Assembly (NCBI GenBank): GCA_028710985.1
Contig: JAQTTB010000001.1
Coordinates: 587,014 to 651,013 of the forward strand
Reading direction: 5' to 3'
Length of the DNA stretch: 64,000 nt
Source: Patescibacteria group bacterium
Lineage (GTDB): Bacteria > Patescibacteriota > Patescibacteriia > JAHJFT01
The notes under the pieces are model-generated. The model was not told the DNA's origin. It ran no database searches and saw nothing but the letters and a program-made list of their open reading frames with translations. This document shows positions 3,712 through 45,953 of the stretch, piece by piece; within the stretch, counting starts at the first letter, position 1; every line of letters starts with the position of its first letter. Made by a program: the position numbers and the translations under genes.

Positions 3712-5052
3712 ATGGCAAAAAAAGAATTAAATTCAATGGAAAAAATTGTGGCATTCTGCAAGCGGCGCGGATTTATTTTTCAGTCATCCGAAATCTACGG
3801 CGGATTCGCGAGCTGTTACGATTACGGCCCGCTCGGCGTCGAGTTGAAAAATAACATCAAGCGCGCCTGGTGGAGGTCCATGGTGCAGGAGAACCCTGAC
3901 ATTGTCGGTCTTGATGCCTCGATCCTGATGTCGCCCAAAGTATGGGAAGCTTCGGGGCATATGGGTTCCGGATTCACCGACCCCATGGCGGAATGCAAAA
4001 AATGCCATAAGCGCTTCCGGCCCGACAAGATCGAAAATCCCAAGTCATGTCCGGAATGCGGTGGAGAGCTGGGGGGGGCAAAACCGTTCAATCTTCTGGT
4101 AAAAACATTCATCGGGCCAGTTGAGGATACCGCCTCGGTGGCATATCTGCGTGGAGAAACTTGTCAGGGGATTTACGTTAATTTTGAAAATGTGCGCGAA
4201 TCAATGCGGCTAAAACTGCCGTTCGGCATCGCCCAGATCGGAAAATCATTTCGCAATGAAATCACACCCGGAAATTTTATCTTCCGCATGCGCGAATTTG
4301 AGCAGATGGAAATGCAATATTTTGTGAATCCCAAAGAAAAAGCGGGGCACTTTAAACGCTGGAAAGATGCTCGGATGCAATGGTATCTTGATTATGGAAT
4401 GAATAAGAAGAACTTAAAATTTTACGAACAGAAAAAAGAAGAATTGGCCCACTATTCAAGCGCGGCTTTCGATATTGAATACGAATTTCCTTTTGGTCTC
4501 GATGAACTCGAGGGCATTCATGACCGCGGGGACTGGGATCTTTCAAATCATTCCAAACATAGCGGTAAGGACCTGCGGTATTTCAACGAAGAGACTAAGG
4601 AAAAATATTTTCCCCACGTTGTCGAGACCTCGGCCGGAGCCGATCGCGCCACCCTGGCATTTTTGATTGATGCCTATAGCGTGGTTGAGGGTGGACGTAC
4701 CACCACCACCGAAAGCGCCAAAGAAGAAGAAGTCGTATTGAGGCTTGATAAAAGGCTGTCGCCGATTAAAGTCGCCGTATTGCCGCTTTCAAAAAAAGAG
4801 GAGCTGGCCTCGCCGTGTCGAAAGATTTACGAGGAGCTTGCTCGTCACTGGATGGTTCAGTATGATGAAACCGGTTCAATCGGCCGGCGTTACCGCCGCC
4901 AGGATGAAATCGGCACCCCCTACTGTATTACCTTTGATTTTGATTCGCTCGAGGACAAGTCCGTGACGGTCCGCGACCGCGATACCATGGAGCAGGAGAG
5001 AATCAAAATAGGTGATCTCGCGGATTATCTCGCAGAAAAACTCAATGTATAA
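3712..5052 (+). CDS. glyQS: glycine--tRNA ligase (dimeric class II type)
   Basis: N-terminus FQSSEIYGGFASCYDYGPLG and class II motifs. Confidence 0.9.
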   Translation: MAKKELNSMEKIVAFCKRRGFIFQSSEIYGGFASCYDYGPLGVELKNNIKRAWWRSMVQENPDIVGLDASILMSPKVWEASGHMGSGFTDPMAECKKCHKRFRPDKIENPKSCPECGGELGGAKPFNLLVKTFIGPVEDTASVAYLRGETCQGIYVNFENVRESMRLKLPFGIAQIGKSFRNEITPGNFIFRMREFEQMEMQYFVNPKEKAGHFKRWKDARMQWYLDYGMNKKNLKFYEQKKEELAHYSSAAFDIEYEFPFGLDELEGIHDRGDWDLSNHSKHSGKDLRYFNEETKEKYFPHVVETSAGADRATLAFLIDAYSVVEGGRTTTTESAKEEEVVLRLDKRLSPIKVAVLPLSKKEELASPCRKIYEELARHWMVQYDETGSIGRRYRRQDEIGTPYCITFDFDSLEDKSVTVRDRDTMEQERIKIGDLADYLAEKLNV

Positions 5053-6319
5053 ATTATCAAAATTAAAAAACGGCATCCGGTTTCTTTCGGTGCCGGTGGC
5101 CGGTACGAGCGCGGTTACGGTTTTTGTTTTATGCCGCGTCGGTTCGCGCTACGAAACTCCGAATCTCGCCGGCGCCTCTCATTTCATCGAACATCTGATG
5201 TTCAAAGGTACGGCGCGTCGGCCGACTACGCTTGATATCTCGCGCGAGCTTGATGGCATCGGCGCCGAATACAACGCCATGACTTCAAAAGACTGGACCG
5301 GCTATTACGTTAAGGCAAGTTCGCGCCATCTGCCGCTTGCCCTGGATGTTTTGTCCGACATGCTCTGGAATTCAAAATTTGATGAACAGGAATACGCTCG
5401 CGAAAAAGGTGTTATCATTGAAGAGATCAACATGTACGAAGATAATCCTAATATGCGCCTTGATTCTCTTTTGGAAGAAGCCATGTTTCCCGGGAATACG
5501 CTCGGCCGGGACATCGCCGGAACCCGCGAGAGTATCACGCGCATGAAACGCGGCGAAGTTATCGCGTATCGCGACCGGTTCTACGCGCCGCGCAACACCG
5601 TGGTCATCGCGGCCGGCGATATTGCCGGCGCTGCGCCTCGGGTCAAAAAGATTTTTGAAAATCTTGGCGTAAAAACTAAGCTCAAACCGCTCCGTTTTAA
5701 AAATTTTTACGGATTAACAAAATCTGCGTTCTTGCGCTGCCGCATCCAGCACAAAAAAACCAAACAGATTCATCTCGCCCTGGGATTTCCGGGGCTGCCG
5801 CATGACCACCGTGATTTGTCCGCGCTCACGCTCGGGAGCGTTATCCTCGGCGGCACCATGAGCTCGCGTCTTTTTATTGCGATCCGTGAACGTGAGGGCC
5901 TGGCGTACTACGTCAATTCATCGGTTGATTGTTATGAGGACGCCGGTATTTTTTCAATCCGCGCCGGGCTGGATACGTCGCGCCTTGTCAAAGCCGCTTC
6001 CATATTGATTGCGGAAATCGAAAAATTTAAAAAATTCGGCCCCACGGCCGAAGAGGTCCGCCGCGCTAAGGACACGGTACGCGGCAAGTTTGAGCTCGCG
6101 CTTGAAGATTCGGCGAATCAGGCCGATTTCTATGGTAAGCAAGCCCTGCTCATGAAACGCATCAAGACTCCGCAGGAAAAACTTCGGGAAATTCAGCGCG
6201 TTTCTGGCGCGGATATCGTGCGGGTCGCGGCCCGGATATTTGACTGGCGCCGCGCCGGCATCGCGATAATCGGACCATACCACCGTCCCTCGGATATTAC
6301 AAAATATTTTAAAGTATAG
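5045..6319 (+). CDS. M16 family zinc peptidase (insulinase-like)
   Basis: HFIEHLMFKGT inverted zinc-binding HxxEH motif; start overlaps glyQS stop by 8 nt. Confidence 0.85.
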   Translation: MYKLSKLKNGIRFLSVPVAGTSAVTVFVLCRVGSRYETPNLAGASHFIEHLMFKGTARRPTTLDISRELDGIGAEYNAMTSKDWTGYYVKASSRHLPLALDVLSDMLWNSKFDEQEYAREKGVIIEEINMYEDNPNMRLDSLLEEAMFPGNTLGRDIAGTRESITRMKRGEVIAYRDRFYAPRNTVVIAAGDIAGAAPRVKKIFENLGVKTKLKPLRFKNFYGLTKSAFLRCRIQHKKTKQIHLALGFPGLPHDHRDLSALTLGSVILGGTMSSRLFIAIREREGLAYYVNSSVDCYEDAGIFSIRAGLDTSRLVKAASILIAEIEKFKKFGPTAEEVRRAKDTVRGKFELALEDSANQADFYGKQALLMKRIKTPQEKLREIQRVSGADIVRVAARIFDWRRAGIAIIGPYHRPSDITKYFKV

Positions 6320-6320
6320 T

Positions 6321-7091
6321 ATGAACAATAAAATAATAATAGCCAACTGGAAAACATATTTATCCGTTTTTGAATCCGAAGAAATCGTGAGAGAGGTTTT
6401 GAAATTCGTAAAAAAACAAAAAGACATGCCCGAGCTCGTTTTTTGCCCGACATTTACGGCAATTCCGTCGGTTGCGAAAATTATCGGCGGCTCTGGAAAA
6501 ATGAAACTTGGTGCGCAGAACATGAACTGGCGCGACCGCGGACCCTTTACCGGCGAAGTCTCGCCAATCACGCTTAAGGAATTCGGCTGCGAGTTTGTTA
6601 TTCTTGGTCATTCGGAACGGAGAGTACATTATCACGAGACCGATCTCGAAATCCATGAGCGCATCAAACTCGCTCTGGAATACGGTCTGATCCCGGTGGT
6701 CTGCGTCGGCGAAACTGCGGAGGAAAGGCGAGCCGGACGTCGCGACGAAGTGGTGCGTCGTCAGGTAACCGAATCGCTCGGCATCCTTGACCTCAAGGGC
6801 AGTGAGCGTATTATTATTGCGTATGAGCCGGTTTGGGCAATCGGTTCCGGCCAGGCCGTCGCCGCCGATGACGTCGAAAGTTCGCATATGTCAATCAGGC
6901 AGACCATTATTGATAATTATTCCGAATCGGAATTTAATCTGCATTTTCAAATTATTTACGGAGGCAGCGTCGATGCCGCAAATCTTGAAGGCTTTCTGGA
7001 AAAGGAAATCGTGAGCGGCGTGCTCGTCGGGTCAGCAAGTTCTCGGACAGAAAGCCTAATCAGTATCATCGATGGCTGTATAAATTATTAA
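6321..7091 (+). CDS. tpiA: triosephosphate isomerase
   Basis: IIANWK, ILGHSERR and AYEPVWAIGSG motifs. Confidence 0.9.
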   Translation: MNNKIIIANWKTYLSVFESEEIVREVLKFVKKQKDMPELVFCPTFTAIPSVAKIIGGSGKMKLGAQNMNWRDRGPFTGEVSPITLKEFGCEFVILGHSERRVHYHETDLEIHERIKLALEYGLIPVVCVGETAEERRAGRRDEVVRRQVTESLGILDLKGSERIIIAYEPVWAIGSGQAVAADDVESSHMSIRQTIIDNYSESEFNLHFQIIYGGSVDAANLEGFLEKEIVSGVLVGSASSRTESLISIIDGCINY

Positions 7092-7093
7092 GT

Positions 7094-7987
7094 ATGATTT
7101 ATTGGATTTGTTTAATTGTCTTAGTGATCGCGGTTGTCGTTATCGCGGTGATCATATTCCGTAAATTTTCGCATCTTGCAATTATCGACGTCGATACAAT
7201 GATTCATGAAAAACAGGCAAAGATAAAGGAAGATATTATCTGGCGCCGGGTCGCGAGAAAAACCAAGGAGCGTAGCGAGCCAATTATTTCGGTCGCTTCG
7301 GAAATAAAAAGGGGAGTTGGTGTATTTTTGGAAAATATTTACAAGCGTGCCAAGGTTCTTGAAAAAAAGTATGCCATGGAACGCCGTGCCTCAAAGGCGT
7401 CGCGTCCGGTATCCGCACCCGCATCGCAGATTGGTGCCATCGTGAGCGAAGCGGAATCGTTATTTGATCAGGGGAAAATGGCCGAGGCTGAAGAAAAATA
7501 CATTGAAGCCATCGGAATCGACGGCCGTAATCCCGAAGCGTATTGGGGGCTTGGAAAAGTCTATATTGAAACAAAACAGTTTGACGAAGCCAAGCAGTCT
7601 TTGGATTTTTTAATAAAACTCGGCAAGGCCGACGACCGCGTGTACGAGACTCTGGGGGACATCGCGTTTTCAGAGAACCGATATAAAGACGCTAAGGAAT
7701 ATTATCTTATCGCCATCGCGAGAAATGATTCAGTCGTAAAATATTACTTATCGCTTGCCAAAACCTATGCCGCTCTGGACGATCGCTCGAATGCGCAGTC
7801 CACGCTCTTTGAAGCCAGGGAGATAGAGCCGAAGAACCCGAAAACCCTTGACTTCCTGATAGAAAATAGTATAATATTAGGCAACAAAGAGCAGGCGCAG
7901 CGGATTTTTGAAGAATTTCGCGCCCTGAATCCGGAAAATCCCAAATTTTCAGAATGGGAAATGGCCATTGAAAAGATGAAGAAATAA
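7094..7987 (+). CDS. membrane-anchored TPR-repeat protein
   Basis: N-terminal TM helix; TPR-like repeats (AEEKYIEAIGIDGRNPEAYWGLG...). Confidence 0.65.
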   Translation: MIYWICLIVLVIAVVVIAVIIFRKFSHLAIIDVDTMIHEKQAKIKEDIIWRRVARKTKERSEPIISVASEIKRGVGVFLENIYKRAKVLEKKYAMERRASKASRPVSAPASQIGAIVSEAESLFDQGKMAEAEEKYIEAIGIDGRNPEAYWGLGKVYIETKQFDEAKQSLDFLIKLGKADDRVYETLGDIAFSENRYKDAKEYYLIAIARNDSVVKYYLSLAKTYAALDDRSNAQSTLFEAREIEPKNPKTLDFLIENSIILGNKEQAQRIFEEFRALNPENPKFSEWEMAIEKMKK

Positions 7988-7990
7988 TTT

Positions 7991-8108
7991 GCCCAAGTAG
8001 CTCCTGCCTTCGTCCCGACTTCGTCGGGACTTCGGCAAGGCAAGCAGTTGGCACCCGCCCGCCACGCAAGCCGAGCTTGCGAGGCGTTGCGGGCGGGGAG
8101 CAACTCCA
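7991..8108 (+). pseudogene. tRNA-Thr(GGU) fragment copy interrupted by a ~94-nt GC-rich hairpin insertion
   Basis: gcccaagtagctc (identical to the 5' end of the intact tRNA at 8135), then an insertion containing hairpins gtcccgacttcgtcgggac and cccgcccgcc...gcgggcggg, then gagcaactcca, then divergence. Confidence 0.6.
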
Positions 8109-8134
8109 CACATTTCATAAAAAAATAATTTTTT

Positions 8135-8210
8135 GCCCAAGTAGCTCAGTTGGCAGAGCAACTCCATGGTAAGGAGTAGGTCAGCAGTTCAAATCTGCTC
8201 TTGGGCTCCA
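8135..8210 (+). tRNA. tRNA-Thr (anticodon GGU)
   Basis: Acceptor stem gcccaag/cttgggc, anticodon loop aTGGTaa, T-loop gttcaaatc, encoded CCA. Confidence 0.8.
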
Positions 8211-8214
8211 CTGC

Positions 8215-8300
8215 GGGTGGTTACCAAAGCAGTCAACTGGGGCAGACTGTAAATCTGCTGGCTCACGCCTTCGTAGGTGCGAATCCTACACCACCCACCA
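8215..8300 (+). tRNA. tRNA-Tyr (anticodon GUA), long variable arm
   Basis: Acceptor stem gggtggt/accaccc, anticodon loop ctGTAaa, long extra arm, CCA. Confidence 0.8.
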
Positions 8301-8301
8301 C

Positions 8302-8486
8302 GCTGATGTAGCTCAGTGGTAAGAGCAACGGTTTTGCCTGCCCGCCATAGCCCAAGCCGATGTAGCTCAGTGGTAGAGCAACGGTTTTGTAAACCGTAGG
8401 TCGTGGGTTCAAATCCCACCGTCGGCTAAGGCGACGGCAGGCGGGTAAACCGTAGGTCGTGGGTTCAAATCCCACCGTCGGCTCCA
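8302..8486 (+). other. composite tRNA-Thr(UGU) locus: 35-nt 5' half and 41-nt 3' half (with CCA) separated by a 109-nt insert that encodes a complete inner tRNA-Thr(UGU)
   Basis: 8302-8336 is acceptor, D-arm and anticodon stem through ttTG; 8446-8486 is Taa through T-arm, acceptor and CCA. Joining the two gives a canonical 76-nt tRNA. The insert is bounded by complementary 10-mers cctgcccgcc (8337-8346) and ggcaggcggg (8436-8445). Confidence 0.6.
8356..8427 (+). tRNA. tRNA-Thr (anticodon UGU), inner intact copy
   Basis: Acceptor stem gccgatg/cgtcggc, anticodon loop ttTGTaa, T-loop ggttcaaatcc. Confidence 0.8.
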
Positions 8487-8516
8487 TAGATAATTATTTA
8501 CGAATACCGTAAGCCT

Positions 8517-8672
8517 ATGTCGCAAGAAAATTTGATTAAGTTAGAGTGTGCTGATTGCAAAAAAATCAACTACTACTCAAAAAAGAACAAGAAAAAACTG
8601 AAAGAAAGGCTGCAGATGAAAAAATTCTGTAAAACCTGCAAGAAGCACACCGGCCATAAAGAAACCAAATAA
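8517..8672 (+). CDS. rpmG: 50S ribosomal protein L33 (51 aa; not in the ORF track)
   Basis: Translation MSQENLIKLECADCKKINYYSKKNKKKLKERLQMKKFCKTCKKHTGHKETK; two CxxC pairs typical of L33; conserved position before tRNA-Trp. Confidence 0.8.
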   Translation: MSQENLIKLECADCKKINYYSKKNKKKLKERLQMKKFCKTCKKHTGHKETK

Positions 8673-8690
8673 TCTGGTTTCTTTAAGTAT

Positions 8691-8763
8691 GGGGGCGTAA
8701 TTCAGTGGCAGAATGTCGGTCTCACCCGTCGCTCGCGAGCGACGGGTGTCTCCAAAACCGAAT
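8691..8763 (+). pseudogene. tRNA-Trp 5' fragment copy with a 25-nt palindromic insertion in the anticodon stem
   Basis: gggggcgtaattcagtggcagaatgtcggtctc + acccgtcgctcgcgagcgacgggtg + tctccaaaaccgaat, then divergence; matches the intact tRNA-Trp 37 nt downstream. Confidence 0.6.
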
Positions 8764-8799
8764 GAGCAAACAAGATTTATCAAAAGAGTTTAAATTCAT

Positions 8800-8873
8800 G
8801 GGGGCGTAATTCAGTGGCAGAATGTCGGTCTCCAAAACCGAATACGTGGGTTCGATTCCTACCGCCCCTGCCA
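8800..8873 (+). tRNA. tRNA-Trp (anticodon CCA)
   Basis: Acceptor stem gggggcg/cgcccct, anticodon loop ctCCAaa, T-loop ggttcgattcc, CCA. Confidence 0.8.
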
Positions 8874-8907
8874 AAAAATTCATCCCGATCGCGGGGTGAA
8901 TTTTTTG
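8874..8907 (+). terminator. rho-independent terminator after tRNA-Trp
   Basis: Hairpin ttcatcccgatcgcggggtgaa followed by TTTTTT. Confidence 0.5.
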
Positions 8908-8917
8908 ATATAGCAAA

Positions 8918-9018
8918 GGTAGGAATCGAAGGGCGCGAGAACCCCGACGAAATGTCGGGGTGGTGCGCAGCGCCCCGGACCGCGAGTCGGAGCGAGCGGG
9001 ATTCCTACCGCCCCTGCC
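8918..9018 (+). repeat. stem-loop built from an inverted plus a direct copy of the tRNA-Trp 3' end
   Basis: ggtaggaatcgaa (reverse complement of the T-arm) ... GC-rich loop ... gattcctaccgcccctgcca (identical to the tRNA-Trp 3' end); followed by hairpin aatcccgactttcgtcgggatt (9062-9083), the same hairpin family as at 8019. Confidence 0.55.
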
Positions 9019-9104
9019 AAAAAATCCTCTCGTAAGAAAGGTTTTTTTGTTTTAACAAAGAATCCCGACTTTCGTCGGGATTCTCTTAAGATCGAGCTAT
9101 CCAA

Positions 9105-9284
9105 TTAGTATTGTCTTGGAGGTCGATTTTTTCGCATTTCGCGATGGCAGTCTTTGCAGAGCAGCCGATCGAGACGGGCCGGATCCGGTTCAAAAGGCAG
9201 TTCTGTGATCTCGGCTCCGCATTTGGAGCAGACCCAGGTGCCCTTGAACATCTGGCGCGGTGCGAAATTGTTGTCGCTGTACAT
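9105..9284 (-). CDS. small CxxC-x20-CxxC zinc-ribbon protein (59 aa; not in the ORF track)
   Basis: Minus-strand translation MYSDNNFAPRQMFKGTWVCSKCGAEITELPFEPDPARLDRLLCKDCHREMRKNRPPRQY; resembles the CxxC-x17-CxxC small protein family. Confidence 0.5.
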   Translation of the reverse strand: MYSDNNFAPRQMFKGTWVCSKCGAEITELPFEPDPARLDRLLCKDCHREMRKNRPPRQY

Positions 9285-9498
9285 TTTCGTTGACCTTATG
9301 TTTTGCTCTTCTTAACCATCCAAGACATTAATATATGTAAATATATAATACGGATTATTAAGCTTACGCAAAACTTATGAATTATGAGCCTATTATAGCA
9401 CAATAGTCCATATCTGTCAAGCCGCCGCGGGGCGCTCGCTGTTGATTCGCGCAATTGGCGTATCAAGTCTTTTCGGATATAATAATAACATATTTTTT

Positions 9499-11205
9499 AT
9501 GTCAGCGATTTTCATACAACTAAGTTTGGTTTTGGCCGTGGCAGTGGCGGCTTCACTCATCATGAGGTTACTGCGTCAACCGCTCATCATCGGCTATATC
9601 ATCACCGGCATCATCGTCGGGCCGATGGTCCTGGGTTTGGTGCGGCAGGGCGATTCGATTGAGGCGTTTGCCCACATCGGGGTCGCACTGCTTCTTTTTA
9701 TTGTCGGCTTGGGGCTTCATCCTAAAATGATTCGCGATGTCGGGGGAGTGGCGGTGGTGACCGGACTCGGACAGATTATATTTACCACGGTCATCGGCTG
9801 GGTAATCGGTGTTTTGCTCGGCTATGCGTCGCTCACCGCGCTATATCTTGCGTTCGCTTTCACGATGAGCAGCACCATTATTATTTTGCGCCTCTTGCAT
9901 GCCAAGGAAGACCAGGATACACTCTACGGCCGGATTGCCATCGGATTCCTTCTGGTGCAGGACTTTGTCGCCATGATTGTTTTTATGGTTCTTGCGAGCG
10001 CGCGTGGTGGCGGTCCACCCGAAATGCTGATTCTTTCCGTGTTTTTGAAAATCGTAGTTGTTGTTGCCGTGCTCTTGATGCTGGTCAAGTTCATCGTGCC
10101 GCTCATCGACCGTTTCTTGGCGCCGAGCAGCGAGTTATTATTTATTTTTGCGATCAGCGTTTGTTTTATTTTCGCCAGCCTATTTGAATATTTTGATTTT
10201 TCTCGCGAACTCGGCGCGCTCGTTGCCGGTTTGGCGCTTTCGTTTTCGCCCTGCCACCGCGAAATGGCGACGCGGCTCAAACCGCTCCGGGATTTTTTCC
10301 TGGTCGCATTTTTTATCGTGCTCGGCGCGGGTATGAGCCTTGTTGATATTGAAAAATCAATCCCCATGATCGTGTTTTTTTCGGCATTCATACTGATCGG
10401 CAATCCGCTTATTGTCTATCTCATAATGACGTGCATGGGTTATACCAAGAAAACCAGCTTTTTCGCCGGGCTCACGGTCGCGCAGATCAGTGAATTCTCG
10501 CTTATACTTCTCGGCATGGGCGTGTCTCTTGGCCACATTCCGGCAAGCATCGTCGGGCCGGCAACCGTGGTTGGCGTTCTCACGATCGGCATCTCTACTT
10601 ACATGATAATGCACAATCACACCCTGTATCGCATTTTGGAAAGATTTCTTTCATTCCTTGCGCCGTGGCATAAACCGACGCGGGAAAAAGGCGCCGCATT
10701 CCGCCCTAAAAAGATTGACGTTCTTGTTCTCGGCAGCCATCGCCTGGGTGGCGGCATCGTGAATATGCTCAAAGAGCTGAAAGTAAATTTTCTAGTTATT
10801 GATCACGATCCGCTGGTTATTCACGCGTTGGAAAAACAAAAAGTTCCGGCCGTCTTCGGCTCGGCCGACGATATTTCGTTTTTGGATCATCTTCCGCTCA
10901 AAGAGACGCGCCTCATTATTTCAACCATACCTGACGTTGAGACAAATGAATTCTTGGTTCATTATGCCAAGACCGCCGCGCCAGCGGCCAATGTTGTCTG
11001 CGTGGCCAATCATGCGTCGCACGCCAAGAATTTATATGACGCCGGTGCCGCCTATGTGGTAATGCCGCCGTATCTTGGCCGAAAATATATTATTGATCTC
11101 GTGAAGCGAAATCGTTTGGATCCGTCAAAATATCGTGAAGAAAAAGCCTGCCACATTAAAGATTTAAGATACATTGGAAACGGTGCGAATTCGGACGGGG
11201 ATTAG
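9499..11205 (+). CDS. Kef-type K+/H+ antiporter (CPA2) with C-terminal RCK/TrkA-N domain
   Basis: About 12 TM helices then Rossmann motif VLVLGSHRLGGGIV. Confidence 0.8.
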   Translation: MSAIFIQLSLVLAVAVAASLIMRLLRQPLIIGYIITGIIVGPMVLGLVRQGDSIEAFAHIGVALLLFIVGLGLHPKMIRDVGGVAVVTGLGQIIFTTVIGWVIGVLLGYASLTALYLAFAFTMSSTIIILRLLHAKEDQDTLYGRIAIGFLLVQDFVAMIVFMVLASARGGGPPEMLILSVFLKIVVVVAVLLMLVKFIVPLIDRFLAPSSELLFIFAISVCFIFASLFEYFDFSRELGALVAGLALSFSPCHREMATRLKPLRDFFLVAFFIVLGAGMSLVDIEKSIPMIVFFSAFILIGNPLIVYLIMTCMGYTKKTSFFAGLTVAQISEFSLILLGMGVSLGHIPASIVGPATVVGVLTIGISTYMIMHNHTLYRILERFLSFLAPWHKPTREKGAAFRPKKIDVLVLGSHRLGGGIVNMLKELKVNFLVIDHDPLVIHALEKQKVPAVFGSADDISFLDHLPLKETRLIISTIPDVETNEFLVHYAKTAAPAANVVCVANHASHAKNLYDAGAAYVVMPPYLGRKYIIDLVKRNRLDPSKYREEKACHIKDLRYIGNGANSDGD

Positions 11206-12446
11206 GGGCCGGGTAGATATTTTATATCTTCGGTTTTCTCCGGCGCGTTCACCGATTTTCTGAATCCGACGCGCTCGGGTGCGTTGTCCGCGGTGCCGTG
11301 CATGCGGCCGCGGTAAACCGAATATTCGCCGAATTTATCATTGATATCGTCAAGCGCCTCGGTGAGGCGTTTTTTCTTTATGGCATCATCCCAGAATTCC
11401 ATCTGCCCGCTCCAGGGCCGGAGATCGGCCGCGGTTACCGCGAGCATGGTAACCTCGGAGCGCAGATTGTCGCGAAGCGCACGGAAAGAGATTTTCCAGA
11501 TGTCCAGACTGTCATAAACCGGCTGGGGTGTGCGGATATATTTATAATCCCCGAATTTGTATTTATACGACCAGCCGATATATATTTTCCCGGCCGCGCG
11601 GCCGGACTCGCGCAGGCGTCGGCCGGTTTTCTCACAGAGCTTCATGAGGATATTGCCCAAATATTCAGGATCCCGCGTGGCAAACGGCAGGCAGTACGAG
11701 TGGCCGATTGATTTTGGCGCGCGCTGCGCGTCCGGATCCACAACTTCGATCTCTTCGCCGTGGATTTTTGCCCAAAGATAATAACCCGGCCGGCCCATCG
11801 ACTGCATGAGGTTGGTTGGGGAGAAATTGTAGAGGTCGATCAGATTTAGGATGCCGAGCCGGTTAAGCCGTACCGCGATCCGGGTATTGATTCCCCAGAC
11901 ATCGGTGAGTTTCATGTCATTGTAGATGTTGGGAATGTCATCCGGCCGGATGATGCTCAGGCCGTCCGGTTTTTTAAATTCTGATGCCACTTTCGCGAGA
12001 AAGCGTGTAAATGAAATGCCGATTGAGCAGGAGAGCCAGCTGCCGATTTCTGAGTGGATGCGCCGCTTAATATCCCTGGCCATGCTTTCAACGGATGTAT
12101 AGTCCGCGGCATGGCCGGTGAGATCCAAAAATGCCTCGTCAATGCTGTATGGTTCCACGATCGGCGTATAATCTTTGAAAATTGAAAAAATGCCCTGGGT
12201 GACGAAGCGGTATTTAATCGGGTCGCATTGCACAAGCTCGATTCTGGGTACGAGTTTTTTTGCGTCGCCGGCAATTGTGCCGGTCTTTACCCCAAATGCT
12301 TTCGCTTCGCGGCTCGCGGCAATAATGCAGCCGTTTTTTGAAACATACGCGCAAACGCCAACCGGCTTGCCGCGCAGATGCGGATTGGCCTGCTGTTCGA
12401 CCGAGGCAAAATACGAATTCATGTCCGCGTGCATGACGATCCGCAT
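11202..12446 (-). CDS. dinB: DNA polymerase IV (Y-family translesion polymerase)
   Basis: MRIVMHADMNSYFASVEQ... UmuC/DinB N-terminus, palm and little-finger regions. Confidence 0.85.
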   Translation of the reverse strand: MRIVMHADMNSYFASVEQQANPHLRGKPVGVCAYVSKNGCIIAASREAKAFGVKTGTIAGDAKKLVPRIELVQCDPIKYRFVTQGIFSIFKDYTPIVEPYSIDEAFLDLTGHAADYTSVESMARDIKRRIHSEIGSWLSCSIGISFTRFLAKVASEFKKPDGLSIIRPDDIPNIYNDMKLTDVWGINTRIAVRLNRLGILNLIDLYNFSPTNLMQSMGRPGYYLWAKIHGEEIEVVDPDAQRAPKSIGHSYCLPFATRDPEYLGNILMKLCEKTGRRLRESGRAAGKIYIGWSYKYKFGDYKYIRTPQPVYDSLDIWKISFRALRDNLRSEVTMLAVTAADLRPWSGQMEFWDDAIKKKRLTEALDDINDKFGEYSVYRGRMHGTADNAPERVGFRKSVNAPEKTEDIKYLPGP

Positions 12447-12467
12447 GTTTCAATATAAAATTTATAT

Positions 12468-12716
12468 TTATCCGTCGGTGTAGATTTCTACGAGCCGCCA
12501 CTCCAGTGTTTCGGTGTCAAATTTTAATTTAAAATAATTCAGCGGGTCGGAGACTGAAAAATAAAAAATTTTCTTGCTGCCTTCGCGCACGCTGTGGATC
12601 AGATTCACCTGCTTAATATCGTATTTTTTGCCGTTCCATTTCATTAGCCACGGCATGGCGCGGTTATTCCGGAACGCGACCAGCACATCCACGGGTTCGT
12701 CAACGAGATCGTACAT
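12468..12716 (-). CDS. small protein of the lexA-dinB operon (82 aa), possible Y-polymerase accessory factor
   Basis: ORF between lexA and dinB on the same strand; no family recognised. The YolD-like suggestion rests only on position. Confidence 0.4.
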   Translation of the reverse strand: MYDLVDEPVDVLVAFRNNRAMPWLMKWNGKKYDIKQVNLIHSVREGSKKIFYFSVSDPLNYFKLKFDTETLEWRLVEIYTDG

Positions 12717-12836
12717 AAATCAGCTCTTCATTGAACAGGGCGAGCATTATGGCGCGGTAGGCTTTTTTAACTTTTCTCCGGTAGATTAATATTTTTTTCA
12801 TATTTTTTATTTTGGCCGCATGTATGCGGCCATTAC

Positions 12837-13463
12837 TTAAATCGCTTGGAACTTTCTCACTACCGCCTTCACCACGCCCTGTACAATCAAATCTTTTACA
12901 TAGATAGGCTGCATTGCGGAATTCGCCGGCTGGAGGCGGATGCGGCCGGCTTCGCGGTAAAATCGTTTTAGCGTGGCATAGGCGTTGTCCAAAAGCGCGA
13001 CCACCACATCGCCGTTTTTGGGCGATGGATTGCGCTCCACGATAACATAATCTCCGTCTAGGATGCCGTCCTCAATCATTGATCTGCCCTTGACGCGGAG
13101 AATGTACGAGTTGGCGCCGTCCACCACGATGTCCGCCGGTACGGCCATGGTCTCGCGCTCCTCGACCGCTTCAATCGGTTCGCCGGCCGTAATTAGCCCG
13201 GCAAGCGGCAGGGCAATGGCGCGGGAAAGATTTAGCATGCCGGCCGCGGGTTCAAGGCCGCGGATTTTTTCCGGTTTGATTTTCAAAAATCCTTTGTCGC
13301 GCAAATTCTGCAGATGTTCATGGACCGTGGCCGGCGAGGAGAGATTAAGCTCTTCGGCGATCTCGCGCACCGAAGGGGACAAGCCGTTATCCTTGATATA
13401 ATTCAAAATAAAATCGAGAACCCCTTTTTGTTTCTTTGTAATATTTTGCAACTTTTTTGCCAT
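12837..13463 (-). CDS. lexA: LexA repressor (S24 peptidase)
   Basis: N-terminal wHTH (GLSPSVREIAEELNLSSPATVHEHL), cleavage region, VKGRSMIEDGILDGDYV. Confidence 0.9.
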   Translation of the reverse strand: MAKKLQNITKKQKGVLDFILNYIKDNGLSPSVREIAEELNLSSPATVHEHLQNLRDKGFLKIKPEKIRGLEPAAGMLNLSRAIALPLAGLITAGEPIEAVEERETMAVPADIVVDGANSYILRVKGRSMIEDGILDGDYVIVERNPSPKNGDVVVALLDNAYATLKRFYREAGRIRLQPANSAMQPIYVKDLIVQGVVKAVVRKFQAI

Positions 13464-24955: not shown

Positions 24956-25891
24956 ATGAGCGCCCAACGTGACATGCAGGGCGCCACTGGCGTCATGCAA
25001 ATTTCCACACATTCCGGCGGCAGGTTCACTGTTCAGAAAAACCGTCTTCTCACGCGCAAAGAAGTAGACGGTCTGAGCCGGCTCAAGAACATTAGAAACC
25101 GGCGAGGCAAAAGGACGCGCCGGAGCCAGGCCGCGTTTGACGAGCTCGTTCTAAGGAACACCCGTCTTGTTACCAGCACAGCATTGCGGTATCCGGTTCG
25201 CGGCGTTGAGCTTGGAGATTGCTTTCAGGAAGGGATAATCGGCCTGATCGTCGGCGTGGAAAAGTACGATCATCGGCGAAAATGCACCTTAAGCACTTAC
25301 GCCACATGGTGGATCCGTCATAGCATTCTGCGTTTTCTCTGGGATCAGCGCGGCGATATTCACGTGGGCTGCAACATGGATCAGACCCTCATGAGAATCG
25401 CCCGCGCCAGGCACAAATACCACGTTCTGCACGGCCATTATCCGACCCGCGAAGAGGCCGCCCGGCTGATTGGGCTTAGCCCGCTTCAGTGTCGCAAGTT
25501 GGTGCGTAATTCGTACCTGACCAAGCAGATTATTAACGGAAACGAACCGTCCGGTGACAACACGATTCATGAATCCGAACTCGCGAGTGATGAACCGGCG
25601 GATACGACCGCCGAACACGACCGCCGCAACCTCCGCCGCTTGCTCGGGGAGGTGCTCGTCGAAGCCGAGGCGCAATGCGCCAAAGCCGATGCGAAAACGC
25701 AAGCCAGAAAAATGCGCAATCTCTCAATCGTGTGTGATCTGGCGGTGGGTCAAGAGTCAGGACGAGCTGTCGGCCGCCGCTATGGAATTTCCCGCCAGTG
25801 CGTGCAGCAAATATGCAAACGCGAATTTCGGCTCCTGCGCGACCTTCTCAAAGCGCGTAACGTTACTGTGGATGATATCCCCACGGCCTGA
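24956..25891 (+). CDS. RNA polymerase sigma factor, sigma-70 family
   Basis: Region 2 (EGIIGLIVGVEKYD...TYATWWIRHSI) and region 4 HTH; AAGGAGG RBS upstream. Confidence 0.8.
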   Translation: MSAQRDMQGATGVMQISTHSGGRFTVQKNRLLTRKEVDGLSRLKNIRNRRGKRTRRSQAAFDELVLRNTRLVTSTALRYPVRGVELGDCFQEGIIGLIVGVEKYDHRRKCTLSTYATWWIRHSILRFLWDQRGDIHVGCNMDQTLMRIARARHKYHVLHGHYPTREEAARLIGLSPLQCRKLVRNSYLTKQIINGNEPSGDNTIHESELASDEPADTTAEHDRRNLRRLLGEVLVEAEAQCAKADAKTQARKMRNLSIVCDLAVGQESGRAVGRRYGISRQCVQQICKREFRLLRDLLKARNVTVDDIPTA

Positions 25892-25924
25892 CGATCCCGC
25901 CTCCTCGGGGTCGTCGTTTTTTTT
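25890..25924 (+). terminator. rho-independent terminator
   Basis: gacgatcccgcctcctcggggtcgtc + T9. Confidence 0.6.
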
Positions 25925-25975
25925 GCAAGCTGCCTATTGAAAAAAATCTTGTTTTATTCTAAAATATGGGTACTT

Positions 25976-27511
25976 ATGGCATTAACGCTTTATAGAAAAT
26001 ATCGGCCGCAAAAGTTCTCCGAAGTTACGAATCAGGAGCATGTTAAGATTACCCTGGAGAATCAGATAACCATGGGCCAGGTGGCTCATGCCTATCTTTT
26101 TGCCGGGCCGCGCGGCGTGGGCAAAACCACCCTGGCGCGCATTCTGGCTAAGGCGGTCAACTGCCTGGAGCGCAAAGACAAGGAATCCGAACCCTGCAAC
26201 AAGTGCCGTTCCTGCGAAGAAATCGTGGCCAACCGGGCCATGGATATCGTGGAAATTGACGCCGCCTCCCACACCGGCGTCGAGAACGTGCGCGCCAATA
26301 TTATTGAAAACGTCCGTTTTAGCCCGGTGAGCCTCAAGCACAAGGTTTTCATCATTGACGAGGCACATATGCTTTCAACCTCGGCGTTCAACGCCCTGCT
26401 TAAGACCCTGGAAGAGCCGCCCGAGCGCGTCATCTTTATTCTCGCCACCACCGAGGCGCACAAAATTCCATCCACCATTATTTCGCGCTGCCAGCGCTTT
26501 GATTTCAAAAAGATCAGCGTAAATGAAATCGCCAAGCGCCTTGAATATATTGTCGCCGAGGAGGGGATTAAGGTTGAGCGTCCGGTGCTTGAACGCATCG
26601 CCCGGCTTTCCGAGGGCTGCGTGCGCGATTCCGAAAGCCTGCTCGCGCAGATTCTCGCGCTTGATGATAAAAAGATTTCCATGGAGCAGGCCGAGCTTGT
26701 TTTGCCGCGCACGAATTTTGACCAGGTGATTGAATTCTTGTCCGCCGTGAGCCGCCGCGATGCTCGCTCCGGCGTTGAGCTCGTGAACCGGCTTGCCGAA
26801 GACGGAGTTGACATGCGGCAGTTTTCGTCCGAGTGCCTGGAATTTATGCGCAATCTTCTTCTTGCGAAAATCGCCGGGCAGAACGCCGAACTCATGGCCG
26901 GCTGGAGCACGGAAATTCAGAATACCATTAACCAGATTCTTTCGGCCTGGACAGCCGCGGATATTGCCCGCGTGATTGAGCTCATGCTCGTAAAACAGCA
27001 CGACCTGAAATCCGCGTCGCCGGCGCAATTGCCGCTCGAGTTATTCGTGATTGAGGCAATCGGCGAGGAAGCGCCGTCTTTTAAGCCGGCAGAAAAGATT
27101 GCCGCCCCGGCTCCGGAAAAAAAATTCCGCGAACCCCGCCTGCCATGTCCGGCAAGGCCTGGCGGGCAGGCCCGCGTAAGCCTTGACCAAATTCATGAGA
27201 AGTGGCACGATTTCCTCTCCGGTCTTTCTGACGCCAATCAGTCGCTCAATCTGATATTGAGCGTGAGCAAGCCCACGGCAATGAACGGCGATACTTTGGA
27301 AATTGCTTGCAAATATAAATTTCATTGTGACCAGATTATGGCCGAACGCAACCGCCGCCCTGCCGAAGACGCGCTCTCCGCGCTGCTCGGCGAAAAAATT
27401 ATGATTCAGGCCGTGGTGCAGGACGATTTGCCAGTTGAACTCGCCGAAGAAGTCCCGGCCGCCACGGTCAATTCCGCGCTCCAGGAATTCGGCGGAAAGG
27501 TGATTGAATGA
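25976..27511 (+). CDS. dnaX: DNA polymerase III subunit gamma/tau
   Basis: LYRKYRPQKF, Walker A GPRGVGKTT, SRCQRF. Confidence 0.9.
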   Translation: MALTLYRKYRPQKFSEVTNQEHVKITLENQITMGQVAHAYLFAGPRGVGKTTLARILAKAVNCLERKDKESEPCNKCRSCEEIVANRAMDIVEIDAASHTGVENVRANIIENVRFSPVSLKHKVFIIDEAHMLSTSAFNALLKTLEEPPERVIFILATTEAHKIPSTIISRCQRFDFKKISVNEIAKRLEYIVAEEGIKVERPVLERIARLSEGCVRDSESLLAQILALDDKKISMEQAELVLPRTNFDQVIEFLSAVSRRDARSGVELVNRLAEDGVDMRQFSSECLEFMRNLLLAKIAGQNAELMAGWSTEIQNTINQILSAWTAADIARVIELMLVKQHDLKSASPAQLPLELFVIEAIGEEAPSFKPAEKIAAPAPEKKFREPRLPCPARPGGQARVSLDQIHEKWHDFLSGLSDANQSLNLILSVSKPTAMNGDTLEIACKYKFHCDQIMAERNRRPAEDALSALLGEKIMIQAVVQDDLPVELAEEVPAATVNSALQEFGGKVIE

Positions 27512-27521
27512 TTTTAAATAT

Positions 27522-27691
27522 TCGGAGATCGTCTAACGGCAGCCTGTCCGCCTCGGGAGGAGACGCCAGGTTTCCGCCAAAGGCGGACAGGCCCGCCATA
27601 GGCGGGCATGCTGGCCCTGGTAACCTGCCTGCCGGCAGGCAGGTCATGGTTCTCCGCCAGCGGGTGGATTCGCCTCCGGCGAAGAATCCAT
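27522..27691 (+). pseudogene. tRNA-Gln(CUG) pseudogene fragmented by four GC-rich palindromic insertions
   Basis: Segments tcggagatcgtctaacgg / acgccaggtt / ctggccctggtaa / tcatggttc / aatccat are colinear with the intact tRNA-Gln at 27952. They are separated by inserts of 23, 38, 20 and 32 nt, including cctgcctgccggcaggcagg, and the 3' acceptor strand is missing. Confidence 0.6.
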
Positions 27692-27699
27692 TTGAATTT

Positions 27700-27948
27700 A
27701 TGTCGTGCTTTATATACGTGATTATAAGTTGTAGCCACGGCAATAGATACGTCGGTAGTACTGATTGCGTCGAAAATAGGTTGGAAGAACACAATAGGGG
27801 AAGATGCCGCTATACATCAGGGAGAAGGCCGTGGGAGCTAGTCCACTCGGAGGAATTTGATACAAGAGCCGAAGCGATGAAACGAGAAAAATTTTTGAAA
27901 TCAGGCCAGGGAAGAAAGTATTTAGATGAAATTTTAAAGAAGAAATAA
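27700..27948 (+). CDS. GIY-YIG nuclease family protein (82 aa)
   Basis: FIYVIISCSHGNRYVGSTDCVENRLEEHNRG...REKFLKSGQGRKYL is the typical small GIY-YIG; the ORF-track N-terminal extension covers the pseudo-tRNA and is rejected. Confidence 0.7.
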   Translation: MSCFIYVIISCSHGNRYVGSTDCVENRLEEHNRGRCRYTSGRRPWELVHSEEFDTRAEAMKREKFLKSGQGRKYLDEILKKK

Positions 27949-27951
27949 TAT

Positions 27952-28025
27952 TCGGAGATCGTCTAATGGTAGGACGCCAGGTTCTGGCCCTGGTAATCAT
28001 GGTTCGAATCCATGTCTCCGAGCCA
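27952..28025 (+). tRNA. tRNA-Gln (anticodon CUG)
   Basis: Acceptor stem tcggaga/tctccga, D-stem gtct/ggac, anticodon loop ttCTGgc, T-loop ggttcgaatcc, CCA. Confidence 0.75.
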
Positions 28026-28033
28026 TCAAAAAA

Positions 28034-28055
28034 GACCACACGCGTGGCCTTTTTT
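28034..28055 (+). terminator. rho-independent terminator after tRNA-Gln
   Basis: gaccacacgcgtggcc followed by TTTTTT. Confidence 0.45.
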
Positions 28056-28079
28056 GATTTATAATGATAAAATAAAATC

Positions 28080-28394
28080 ATGCGCGAGCACGATCGTCGT
28101 TCAATCCGATTACCGACCTACGATTATAATTCGCCGGGCTATTATTATTTAACAATATGCACCGCCGATCGGTTATGCGTCTTTGGTCAAATCGAAGATA
28201 AGAAAATGGTTCTAAACGAAATTGGCAAAATTGCTGACAGACGGTGGAGGCAGATTCCGTTCCGTTTTCCGAATGTAAAATTAGATGTTTATGTCATCAT
28301 GCCGAATCATATACACGGAATCGTACAAATAATGGATAACGACGCCGTAGGGGCGATTCATGAATCGCCCCTACACGGTCTGGAGAGGCGATGA
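28080..28394 (+). CDS. IS200-like Y1 transposase, RAYT-like (REP-associated tyrosine transposase), C-terminally truncated (104 aa)
   Basis: RLPTYDYNSPGYYYLTICT...VIMPNHIHGIV (HxH motif); the C-terminal catalytic-Tyr helix is absent. Confidence 0.65.
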   Translation: MREHDRRSIRLPTYDYNSPGYYYLTICTADRLCVFGQIEDKKMVLNEIGKIADRRWRQIPFRFPNVKLDVYVIMPNHIHGIVQIMDNDAVGAIHESPLHGLERR

Positions 28395-28693
28395 TAGAGA
28401 TGCGGTTGATTCTATCGATTGAAAATGATATTATAGATACGATAAATATTAATCAGAACAATATGGAAAAACCAACATTCGAATCCGGCCCGGAGAGTGC
28501 CGAAGCCATTGAAAGTGAAATTGAGCGCCTTATCGGCGAGCTGGACAATTTTGATTTTGATGATTATTCGGCCGTTGTGCAGGATGAATGGTATGCGGTT
28601 GAAGAGGAAGCGCAGGTTGGCAAGGACCGGTCCGGGGCAAAGGCGCGCCTGGAAGAATTTATAAAATATTTAAAAGAACATAGCAAAAAATAA
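28391..28693 (+). CDS. hypothetical acidic small protein (start may be at 28463)
   Basis: ORF; Asp/Glu-rich. Confidence 0.35.
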   Translation: MIEMRLILSIENDIIDTININQNNMEKPTFESGPESAEAIESEIERLIGELDNFDFDDYSAVVQDEWYAVEEEAQVGKDRSGAKARLEEFIKYLKEHSKK

Positions 28694-28694
28694 T

Positions 28695-29036
28695 ATGAGG
28701 ACACCACTTATCATTCTCGCTGTCATCGTCGTCATCGGCCTCGGAGTATATCTTTATATGGCCATGGGAACCGTGGTCAATGCGCCGACCGGAGAACCGG
28801 GCGCCGTAATCCAACCCGGCCTTACTCTGGAGCAGGCGCGCGCCATTGCCGTGGCGAGCGATTGCGCCGCCGAGGGCCCGATCACGGACAATTCCTTTTA
28901 TAATGAAAATTCCAAAACCTGGTGGTTTGATATGGATATCGAAAAAACCGGCTGCGCGCCGGCCTGCGTAGTGAGCGAAGAAACGCGTACCGCGGAAATC
29001 AACTGGCGCTGCACCGGATTAATTATTCCGGAATAA
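28695..29036 (+). CDS. small membrane-anchored protein with four Cys
   Basis: N-terminal TM then a soluble part with two Cys pairs. Confidence 0.45.
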   Translation: MRTPLIILAVIVVIGLGVYLYMAMGTVVNAPTGEPGAVIQPGLTLEQARAIAVASDCAAEGPITDNSFYNENSKTWWFDMDIEKTGCAPACVVSEETRTAEINWRCTGLIIPE

Positions 29037-45873: not shown

Positions 45874-45953
45874 CACGGCCGCAGTATCTTGTTCCCCTCC
45901 TTAATAAAGGAGGGGAAAGGGGAGGATTTTACAAGTGGATTTTAGAACAGCGC

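Follow-up and report, generated by a model that had tools for sequence, protein, structure and literature searches.

Probable Scars of a Hairpin-Associated GIY-YIG Nuclease Element in Duplicated tRNA Genes of a Patescibacteria Group Bacterium

Introduction

Ssn nucleases, which occur with NTS/SRM hairpin repeats, bind a hairpin in single-stranded DNA and cut upstream of it (Chenal et al. 2025, PMC11893778). In the candidate phyla radiation (CPR), rRNA genes carry GIY-YIG-encoding insertions that belong to neither the group I nor the group II introns and lie mostly at the tips or bases of stem-loops; the authors judged these GIY-YIG enzymes to stand outside homing, and do not mention tRNA (Tsurumaki et al. 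2024, PMC11270868). Homing endonucleases offer further comparators, namely group I introns in the anticodon loops of bacterial tRNA genes and free-standing GIY-YIG Seg enzymes such as T4 SegB, which lies in a tRNA cluster (PMC2330249). Here we describe a 64,000-nucleotide (nt) stretch of DNA from a Patescibacteria group bacterium (the window) in which a tRNA cluster at positions 7991-9100 is accompanied by broken tRNA copies filled with GC-rich hairpins, and in which a second locus, at tRNA-Gln, combines such a copy with a small GIY-YIG nuclease gene.

In the cluster, tRNA-Thr(GGU), tRNA-Thr(UGU) and tRNA-Trp are working genes that sit beside or inside pieces of their own copy, and the breaks, which fall in loops, are filled with GC-rich modules. 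Duplication of a tRNA gene that keeps one copy intact is the core of the phenomenon, and had not been recognized in the original prediction made from this DNA. We think it rather probable that the broken copies are scars of a selfish element, made up of GC-rich hairpins and a tiny nuclease gene, that invades tRNA genes, and that the cluster at 7991-9100 holds its ORF-less remains (ORF, open reading frame). The element is apparently undescribed: in the literature searched, whose coverage is incomplete so that an earlier description is possible, we found no account of bacterial tRNA genes in which GIY-YIG genes or hairpin modules are nested.

Results

Intact tRNA Genes and Their Broken Copies

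Proteins of the window match those of metagenome-assembled genomes of Patescibacteria. The tRNA genes of the window were called with ARAGORN and Rfam, and copies were mapped with the exact words of each tRNA; across the 64 kb, long colinear copies were found only beside the parent gene. Two sets of loci were used for comparison. The first contained 80 loci anchored on rpmG, with one genome per species, and the second contained 80 further metagenome loci obtained by scanning with three GIY-YIG ORFs (a three-sequence protein alignment served as the query). Individual loci are cited below by L numbers. The proposal that Thr(GGU), Tyr, Thr(UGU), rpmG and Trp are all intact was confirmed, by ARAGORN and Rfam for the tRNAs and by PF00471 for rpmG.

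Intact tRNA-Thr(GGU) (8135..8210, + strand; ARAGORN, Rfam) is preceded on the same strand by a copy of its positions 1-32 that ends in the anticodon loop (7991..8108). The copy consists of three pieces, 7991-8003, 8045-8053 and 8098-8108, which correspond to tRNA positions 1-13, 13-21 and 22-32. The original prediction had a single 94-nt insert here; an insert-broken 5′ copy does precede the gene, but it in fact carries two GC-rich inserts in the D-loop (8004-8044, 41 nt; 8054-8097, 44 nt), with a 9-nt piece of the D-loop retained between them. The inserts are homologous to D-loop inserts of L053 and L096 (z 6.4 for 8054-8097 against the L096 insert). The spacer between copy and gene (8109..8134, +) holds a diverged second copy, at 8117-8131, of a 15-nt leader that stems from the end of the local TPR gene. 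This leader flank is thus included in the Thr(GGU) copy, and the duplication was therefore made at the DNA level.

tRNA-Tyr(GUA) (8215..8300, +; ARAGORN, Rfam) follows and is the sole tRNA of the cluster without fragment copies. Beyond it, Thr(UGU) is enclosed by the two halves of an outer copy of itself, 5′ half before and 3′ half after, a nesting that had escaped the earlier reading. On the + strand, the outer 5′ half (8302..8336, positions 1-35, with two differences from the inner copy) is followed by a 19-nt GC-rich spacer, cctgcccgccatagcccaa (8337..8355), by the inner, intact tRNA-Thr(UGU), which has no encoded CCA (8356..8427; ARAGORN, Rfam), by a 17-nt GC-rich spacer, aaggcgacggcaggcgg (8428..8444), which is complementary to and pairs with the first, and by the outer 3′ half, which runs from the anticodon onward, includes the CCA and is identical to the inner copy (8445..8486). 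The nest folds with a z of -5.1. The same onion, with the same break point and complementary spacers, occurs in L054, where the array contains a gap of Ns that makes copy numbers unreliable.

After rpmG (ribosomal protein L33; 8517..8672, +; PF00471, E 2e-17), intact tRNA-Trp (8800..8873, +; ARAGORN, Rfam) is preceded by a copy of its positions 1-44 with a palindrome in the anticodon loop (8691..8763, +); a truncated 5′ copy broken by a hairpin insert had been claimed here. The pieces 8691-8723 and 8748-8763 enclose a perfect 24-nt palindrome (8724-8747; centre TCGCGA), which is flanked by the 5-nt repeat GTCTC. The further claim that tRNA-Trp is followed by an inverted and a direct copy of its 3′ end also held. 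A long GC-rich hairpin (8918..9019, +) runs from an inverted T-arm copy (8918-8930) to a direct copy of Trp positions 55-74 (9000-9019); its DNA fold has an energy of -28.8 kcal/mol (z -3.2), and the break lies in the T-loop. Analogous copies of the Trp 3′ end follow tRNA-Trp in L007, L023, L074 and L076.

A tRNA-Gln Locus with a Nuclease Gene

The tRNA-Gln locus of the window has the order decorated 5′ fragment, GIY-YIG gene, intact tRNA, and represents a complete version of the arrangement in the same genome. The 5′ copy (27522..27691, +) covers positions 1 to about 62 of tRNA-Gln and carries four GC-rich inserts, one per loop: a D-loop insert (27543-27561), a two-hairpin module in the anticodon loop (27573-27610), a palindrome in the variable loop (27624-27643) and a module in the T-loop (27653-27683). 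It is followed by a gene for an 82-aa single-domain GIY-YIG nuclease (27700..27948, +; PF01541, E 1.5e-15), the only member of this family in the window, and then by intact tRNA-Gln(CUG) (27952..28025, +; ARAGORN, Rfam).

PF01541 covers residues 3-72 of the 82 in the nuclease, homologues of which are 78-85 aa long, and the conserved catalytic residues Tyr, Tyr, Arg, His and Glu are kept. In profile matches, its nearest solved relatives were the UPF0213 proteins 1zg2 (1.4e-14) and 1ywl, which are minimal Slx1-like proteins of bacteria, followed by SLX1. Against TIGR01453 it scored 18.6 bits, where the cut-off is 56.

Two further observations concern the surroundings of this locus. Just after tRNA-Gln, a truncated ORF (28080-28394, +) resembles a REP-associated tyrosine transposase (RAYT; REP, repetitive extragenic palindrome; NF047646, E 5e-7, 29.6 bits against a cut-off of 80), and a perfect GTAG-tagged hairpin, GTAGGGGCGATTCATGAATCGCCCCTAC, lies at its 3′ end (28347-28374) as the single occurrence in the window. 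Upstream of the locus, a GC-rich palindrome, ccccgcctgcca...tggcgggcagg, lies in frame at 27135-27170 within the linker region of dnaX (25937-27511) and is translated as REPRLPCPARPGGQARV; it is of the same flavour as the tRNA inserts and may represent a hairpin insertion tolerated in a protein gene.

Recurrence of the Architecture in CPR Assemblies

Among the loci anchored on rpmG, 22 of 80 carried tRNA fragments of at least 13 nt (the threshold applied) beside the parent tRNA, as did none of the eight labelled non-CPR. The order fragment, hairpins, GIY-YIG ORF, intact tRNA was found in L053, L011, L017, L044 and L056. In the metagenome set, a tRNA was counted as linked if it lay on the same strand no more than 150 nt past the GIY-YIG stop codon. 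This was so in 59 of 73 loci with enough downstream sequence, and a fragment of that same tRNA, mostly of positions 1-35, lay upstream in 47 of the 56 of these 59 that had enough upstream sequence. Most of the 14 loci that had no downstream tRNA (at least 9) showed the mirror arrangement, in which the intact tRNA precedes the ORF and a 3′ fragment follows it. Nearly every GIY-YIG ORF is thus bracketed by two overlapping copies of a single tRNA, of which one and only one is complete.

An intact tRNA copy adjoined in every case examined, and ARAGORN in intron mode, applied to eight loci, found no locus at which an interrupted tRNA was the only copy. The architecture is widespread within the CPR, where the tRNAs concerned are those for Tyr, Ser, Pro, Thr, Gln, Asn, Trp, His and Gly. 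Relatives of the window ORF (70-75% identity) have the same layout at tRNA-Gln (L166), at tRNA-Asn with a module on both sides (L164) and at tRNA-Tyr next to a TPR gene, as also found in the window (L165). L097 presents a full unit of 5′ half, module, ORF, intact tRNA, module and 3′ half. The L166 record is labelled Candidatus Margulisbacteria, so that its tRNA-Gln fragment, GIY-YIG ORF and tRNA-Gln lie on a contig binned outside the CPR; this may reflect mis-binning or a spread beyond Patescibacteria.

Mismatches between fragments and intact genes cluster in the acceptor stem, which suggests that the copies are different functional alleles and not products of decay. Outer fragments can also belong to another allele or tRNA body than the adjacent intact isoacceptor (L126, 1081-1108 versus 1414-1447; L130, 1577-1619; L138, 470-497): the acceptor of L126 reads GGGCAGG versus GGGTGGA, and L138 has a wholly different Ser(UGA) 5′ half.

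Hairpin Modules and Their Positions

The window contains nine perfect GC-rich hairpins, compared with about one in shuffled sequences, and five of the nine lie in the two tRNA regions. In the comparison loci, the break is marked by a 35-nt two-hairpin module, CCACCGCC-N4-GGCGGGG-(T/C)(G/C)-CCGCC-N4-GGCGG(C/G)A, for which 44 matches were found, 36 of them on the strand of the ORF. It follows position 34/35 in Tyr, Ser, Pro and Thr tRNAs and lies in the D-loop of several Ser tRNAs; a Gln/Asn subfamily has a related module in the T-loop. In most loci the module precedes the ORF by about 50 nt, and in L097, L119, L120, L126, L138 and L164 it occurs on either side of the ORF. Its hairpins are supported by compensatory changes: 95% of cells are paired, and 18 cells show double changes compared with 6.6 in shuffles, none of 500 of which reached as high a count. 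When the GC-rich inserts of all loci are pooled, 52 of 62 are located in one of the four tRNA loops, where 38% would be expected (p 2e-13), with hot spots after positions 34, 13 and 19.

The prediction that the inserts belong to recurring families of GC-rich hairpins and palindromes was borne out. Inserts of the window's Thr and Trp copies are homologous to inserts at the same positions elsewhere, ORF-bearing loci included: beyond the L096 homology of the Thr(GGU) copy described above, palindromes of the Trp type with the centre TCGCGA recur in L044 and L056, where they adjoin GIY-YIG ORFs. An identical 20-nt palindrome, CCTGCCTGCCGGCAGGCAGG, is shared by the Gln fragment of the window and a Thr(GGU) fragment in L165. 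Nested GC-rich hairpins also form a cluster at an intergenic site (45800-45935) of the window, and among them is CCTGCCTGCCgacaGGCAGG, a near-copy of the palindrome in the Gln fragment; this hairpin family is therefore not confined to tRNA genes.

A switch of partners was observed within one module. Positions 1-1171 of L107 are 99.6% identical to positions 410-1580 of L130/L131 through tRNA-Ser(GGA) to the middle of the two-hairpin module, past which they enter separate tRNA loci, with a Tyr cassette in one and a Ser 3′ half in the other. Rearrangements mediated by the modules would explain this, as would mis-joins made at modules by assemblers.

Evidence of Mobility

Comparison of pairs of loci placed boundaries at tRNA genes. 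L091 and L092 share an 887-nt cassette that is 99.8% identical, whereas the sequence on either side, rpmG included, is 89-91% identical; on the right, the cassette stops at the 3′ end of the intact tRNA. Between L096 and L102, 94% identity begins no more than 2 nt from the first base of the 5′ fragment, and the upstream contexts are unrelated. At Thr(GGU), L136 has one fragment-and-insert unit more than L135 but otherwise matches it, with 100% identity downstream and 95.7% upstream. One presence/absence polymorphism and near-identical cassettes in diverged flanks therefore indicate recent mobility of these elements.

Of the repeated insertion and excision envisaged in the original prediction, the first part thus finds support in an active process (L135 versus L136, L091/L092), while no evidence for excision was obtained. 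In the comparison with related genomes that it had called for, presence/absence variation was seen (L135/L136), and Thr(GGU) fragments ending at position 32 were shared by the distant L005 and L053.

Other Features of the Region

A hairpin between A- and T-runs, resembling a bidirectional terminator, overlaps the end of tRNA-Trp (8872..8907, no strand assigned). Further downstream lies a perfect 11-bp hairpin, AGAATCCCGAC/GTCGGGATTCT (9059..9084, no strand assigned), related to hairpins at 8012-8030 and 8941-8961. The reported recurrence of the CCCGAC..GTCGGG hairpin was confirmed at 8012-8030 and 9059-9084, and a third occurrence, in inverse orientation, was found at 8941-8961. The hairpin at 9059-9084 is the terminator-like hairpin of a small zinc-ribbon gene and is of the same CCCGAC/GTCGGG family as two hairpins within the tRNA fragments. 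This ORF (9105-9284, - strand; CxxC-x17-CxxC treble-clef; TIGR04272, PF23477) is convergent to the tRNA operon. It had been taken to replace secE-nusG; the ORF exists, but 10 of 10 CPR relatives do not have secE-nusG after tRNA-Trp, and therefore nothing was replaced in the window.

In L023 (4370-4453), L074 (2860-2933) and L076 (2855-2937), tRNA-Trp is followed by a conserved element of about 70 nt, ..GGAGTTGGAGAGAAGCC..CCGTAAG.CCGTTG.GG..GCACCGAGGAGCC, that leads directly into copied T-arm and acceptor 3′-end sequence. Rfam has no name for this element, and its sequence is unlike 8918-8999 of the window.

Metagenome-assembled genome (MAG) contigs often stop a few hundred bases from rpmG and the tRNA cluster (L003-L082), and N gaps occur there in L028 and L054; repeats at this cluster seem to break short-read assemblies. 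A hidden tRNA candidate at 31800-31910 of the window proved to be a chance match in coding sequence. Exact-protein look-ups of the 82-aa ORF, the zinc-ribbon protein, rpmG and the transporter gene returned no record.

Discussion

Weighing the Scar Interpretation

The homologous inserts, the complete Gln locus and the regular association of GIY-YIG ORFs with duplicated tRNAs lead us to favour scars of a nuclease-bearing element. Several observations weigh against it. The cluster at 7991-9100 contains neither a nuclease gene nor a recognizable remnant of one, and its link to nuclease elements rests on insert homology and analogy. With a covariance model run with filters off, the canonical module was significant once in the window, at the Gln locus only; the hairpins inserted in the Thr and Trp copies are of other families. 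The 82-aa nuclease is a catalytic domain alone, with no separate DNA-binding domain, and its activity is a predicted one. The leader copy at 8117-8131, which derives from the end of the local TPR gene, is explained by tandem duplication on the spot no less well than by imported cargo. Thr(GGU) fragments that end at position 32 and carry D-loop inserts also occur in the distant relatives L005 and L053, and the arrangement could therefore be old and fixed, or even have a function as an operon leader. In the homing version of the proposal, the intact copy keeps the target site, which leaves self-immunity without an explanation. Finally, the interior of 7991-9100 has no confirmation in an independent assembly.

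Alternative Explanations

The alternative that survives best, which we nevertheless regard as unlikely, holds that the palindromes are autonomous or trans-mobilized elements resembling REPs or miniature inverted-repeat transposable elements (for example, RAYT-driven) that landed in the loops of tandem-duplicated tRNA pseudo-copies, and that the GIY-YIG gene is a passenger. It would account for the presence of the 20-nt palindrome at unrelated sites and in different genomes (window 27624, near-copy at 45829, L165), for the 5-nt direct repeat around the Trp palindrome, for the RAYT-like ORF at 28080-28394 and for the GC palindrome within dnaX. The RAYT ORF is truncated, however, and at 29.6 bits falls far below its cut-off of 80, and its own GTAG-tagged hairpin (GTAGGGGCG) occurs once in the window and is distinct from the tRNA inserts. 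The GIY-YIG gene is tied to fragments and modules in more than 60 loci in fixed orientation, and passenger status gives no reason why nearly every nuclease gene should lie between overlapping copies of one tRNA.

We give even less credence to the idea that the decorated copies are functional RNA, either an intron-containing or split tRNA of the archaeal kind or a structured leader with a role in controlling how the tRNA operon is processed. The inserts do lie in loops, like those of archaeal multi-intron tRNAs; the outer Thr(UGU) halves with their complementary spacers fold as a pre-tRNA with an extended anticodon stem (z -5.1, as above); and fragments are often identical to the intact gene, with similar Thr(GGU) fragments in distant relatives. 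A promoter-like site, TTGACT-16-TATAAT (7848..7875, +; 11 of 12, a consensus match only), also lies upstream of the first fragment, inside the 3′ end of the TPR gene, and if this candidate promoter is used, the decorated Thr(GGU) fragment is a transcribed operon leader. Most copies, however, have no 3′ half or no 5′ half, so no tRNA could be formed from them, and there is always an intact gene next to them. Several inserts are palindromes that are perfect and have no loop, as is typical of events at the DNA level, and Rfam searches (7000-10000 at E ≤ 1; whole window at gathering score) recovered no intron, ribozyme or small RNA family and only five tRNAs. Bacteria are not known to have a splicing endonuclease.

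An assembly artefact, in which repeats were collapsed or looped during metagenome assembly, appears very improbable. Logan contigs end inside the second insert at window position 8081, many MAG contigs end near this tRNA cluster, the L054 array has its N gap, and L107 and L130 switch partners inside a module. Yet the junctions are unique and the fragments differ from the intact copies, which excludes simple graph loops; the first junction of the Thr(GGU) copy is identical in two Logan assemblies from separate runs, and the tRNA-Gln locus is identical in an NCBI assembly. The source contig, which encodes the exact nuclease protein, measures 744,538 nt, and the same architecture recurs in dozens of assemblies from different studies and assemblers.

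Least probable of all is that the fragments are att-site scars of islands or phages integrated and excised at tRNA genes, the integrase activity suspected originally: integrase sublocations include the anticodon loop and the T-loop, as do the breaks here, and the direct copies of tRNA 3′ parts downstream (Trp 9000-9019; Thr(UGU) 8445-8486) look like attR, but no integrase or recombinase gene lies within 5 kb (ORF lists 5000-13000 and 25500-29000), the would-be elements or spacers span just 17-126 nt, spacers of 17-35 nt do not suit att sites, 5′ fragments stand upstream of genes and can hold several inserts each, the module pattern had 0 matches in 2.9 million IMG/VR viral contigs, and the gene linked to such fragments elsewhere encodes a small GIY-YIG nuclease.

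How a Nuclease Element Could Persist in tRNA Genes

If the copies are scars of a nuclease-bearing element, the following course of events could have produced them. The nuclease, a minimal enzyme of the Slx1/UPF0213/Ssn kind, would recognize either the hairpin module or the loops that a tRNA gene forms when its single-stranded DNA folds, and would nick next to this target; the type of nuclease (Slx1-like, Ssn-like) points to hairpins or loops of single-stranded DNA as the structures recognized, in keeping with the positions of the inserts in loops. Repair of the break would then duplicate a tRNA segment on one side. The cassette might be copied from a donor chromosome, with the conserved tRNA halves serving as homology arms (a homing-like route that would follow DNA uptake), or the duplication could arise by local duplicative repair. 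For Thr(GGU), the leader copy at 8117-8131 favours local duplication, whereas at other loci allele differences and cassette boundaries favour transfer. Invasion of an essential single-copy gene would not be lethal because one complete tRNA copy remains. Repeated rounds would build an onion in which older halves surround a young intact gene, and loss of the nuclease gene by deletion between the direct tRNA repeats of a full unit, such as that in L097, would leave scars, among them the three ORF-less products of the cluster at 7991-9100, and could yield every layout seen.

It is also possible, if somewhat on the doubtful side, that the CPR hosts an undescribed class of self-propagating "tRNA-replacement" elements, each composed of a module, a gene for a minimal single-strand- or structure-specific GIY-YIG nuclease and a spare tRNA copy or half, which would invade the same tRNA gene in other genomes after DNA uptake, with the universally conserved tRNA halves serving for recombination, and so replace tRNA genes horizontally across lineages and leave live genes wrapped in onions of dead halves.

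Were the proposal true, a selfish element would live in an essential single-copy RNA gene without splicing, by duplicating or carrying the part that it destroys. It would explain the pseudo-tRNA fragments of streamlined CPR genomes and the breaks of MAG contigs at tRNA clusters, and would provide a route for horizontal replacement of tRNA genes. Hairpin-guided nucleases of the Ssn type would gain a new class of target and a new phylum-level group, and the many natural pairs of nuclease and hairpin could become tools for single-stranded DNA. For annotators, tRNA halves beside intact CPR tRNAs would be real features and not noise.

Comparison with Known Systems

Among described systems, integrative elements that regenerate tRNA genes share with these loci a break in the anticodon loop or T-loop and a duplicated segment that restores the gene. 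They differ in that no recombinase is present here, the units range in length from tens of nt to about 400 nt, duplications affect 5′ as well as 3′ parts and hairpin modules mark the junction. Archaeal disrupted tRNAs (with bulge-helix-bulge introns, split or permuted) likewise have short GC-rich inserts at several loops and complementary sequences after the 5′ half and before the 3′ half; the loci described here are bacterial, and no splicing is required in them, because the interrupted copies, themselves truncated, have an intact copy beside them.

The resemblance to homing genes is broader. A nuclease gene lies in or next to conserved tRNA genes, near-identical cassettes occur in diverged flanks, and forms with and without the ORF coexist, as in a cycle of gain, degeneration and loss; cassettes are more similar than their flanks (L091/L092), with boundaries at the first base of the tRNA (L096/L102, L135/L136). 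Unlike group I and other homing systems, however, these loci have no self-splicing intron by Rfam and the nuclease has no DNA-binding domain, and the target is rescued by duplication instead of splicing, with the intact copy keeping the putative target site.

The CPR rRNA insertions (PMC11270868) come from the same host group and likewise place GIY-YIG ORFs in structural RNA genes. They are thought to be removed from the transcript, whereas here the host is a tRNA gene whose function is kept by duplication of part or all of the gene.

Ssn (PMC11893778) is likewise a single-domain GIY-YIG protein of about 80-95 aa whose gene has oriented GC-rich hairpin repeats next to it, in some cases at either end in an insertion sequence-like order of hairpin, gene, hairpin, and its cut upstream of the hairpin corresponds to the site at which the tRNA piece ends and the module starts in our loci. 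In contrast, the published SRM motif HGTCWY... has 0 matches in the window (0-1 in shuffles), the hairpins lie inside tRNA genes instead of being dispersed in hundreds of copies, and the Ssn study mentions neither tRNA nor CPR. The nearest solved relatives of our nuclease are UPF0213 proteins.

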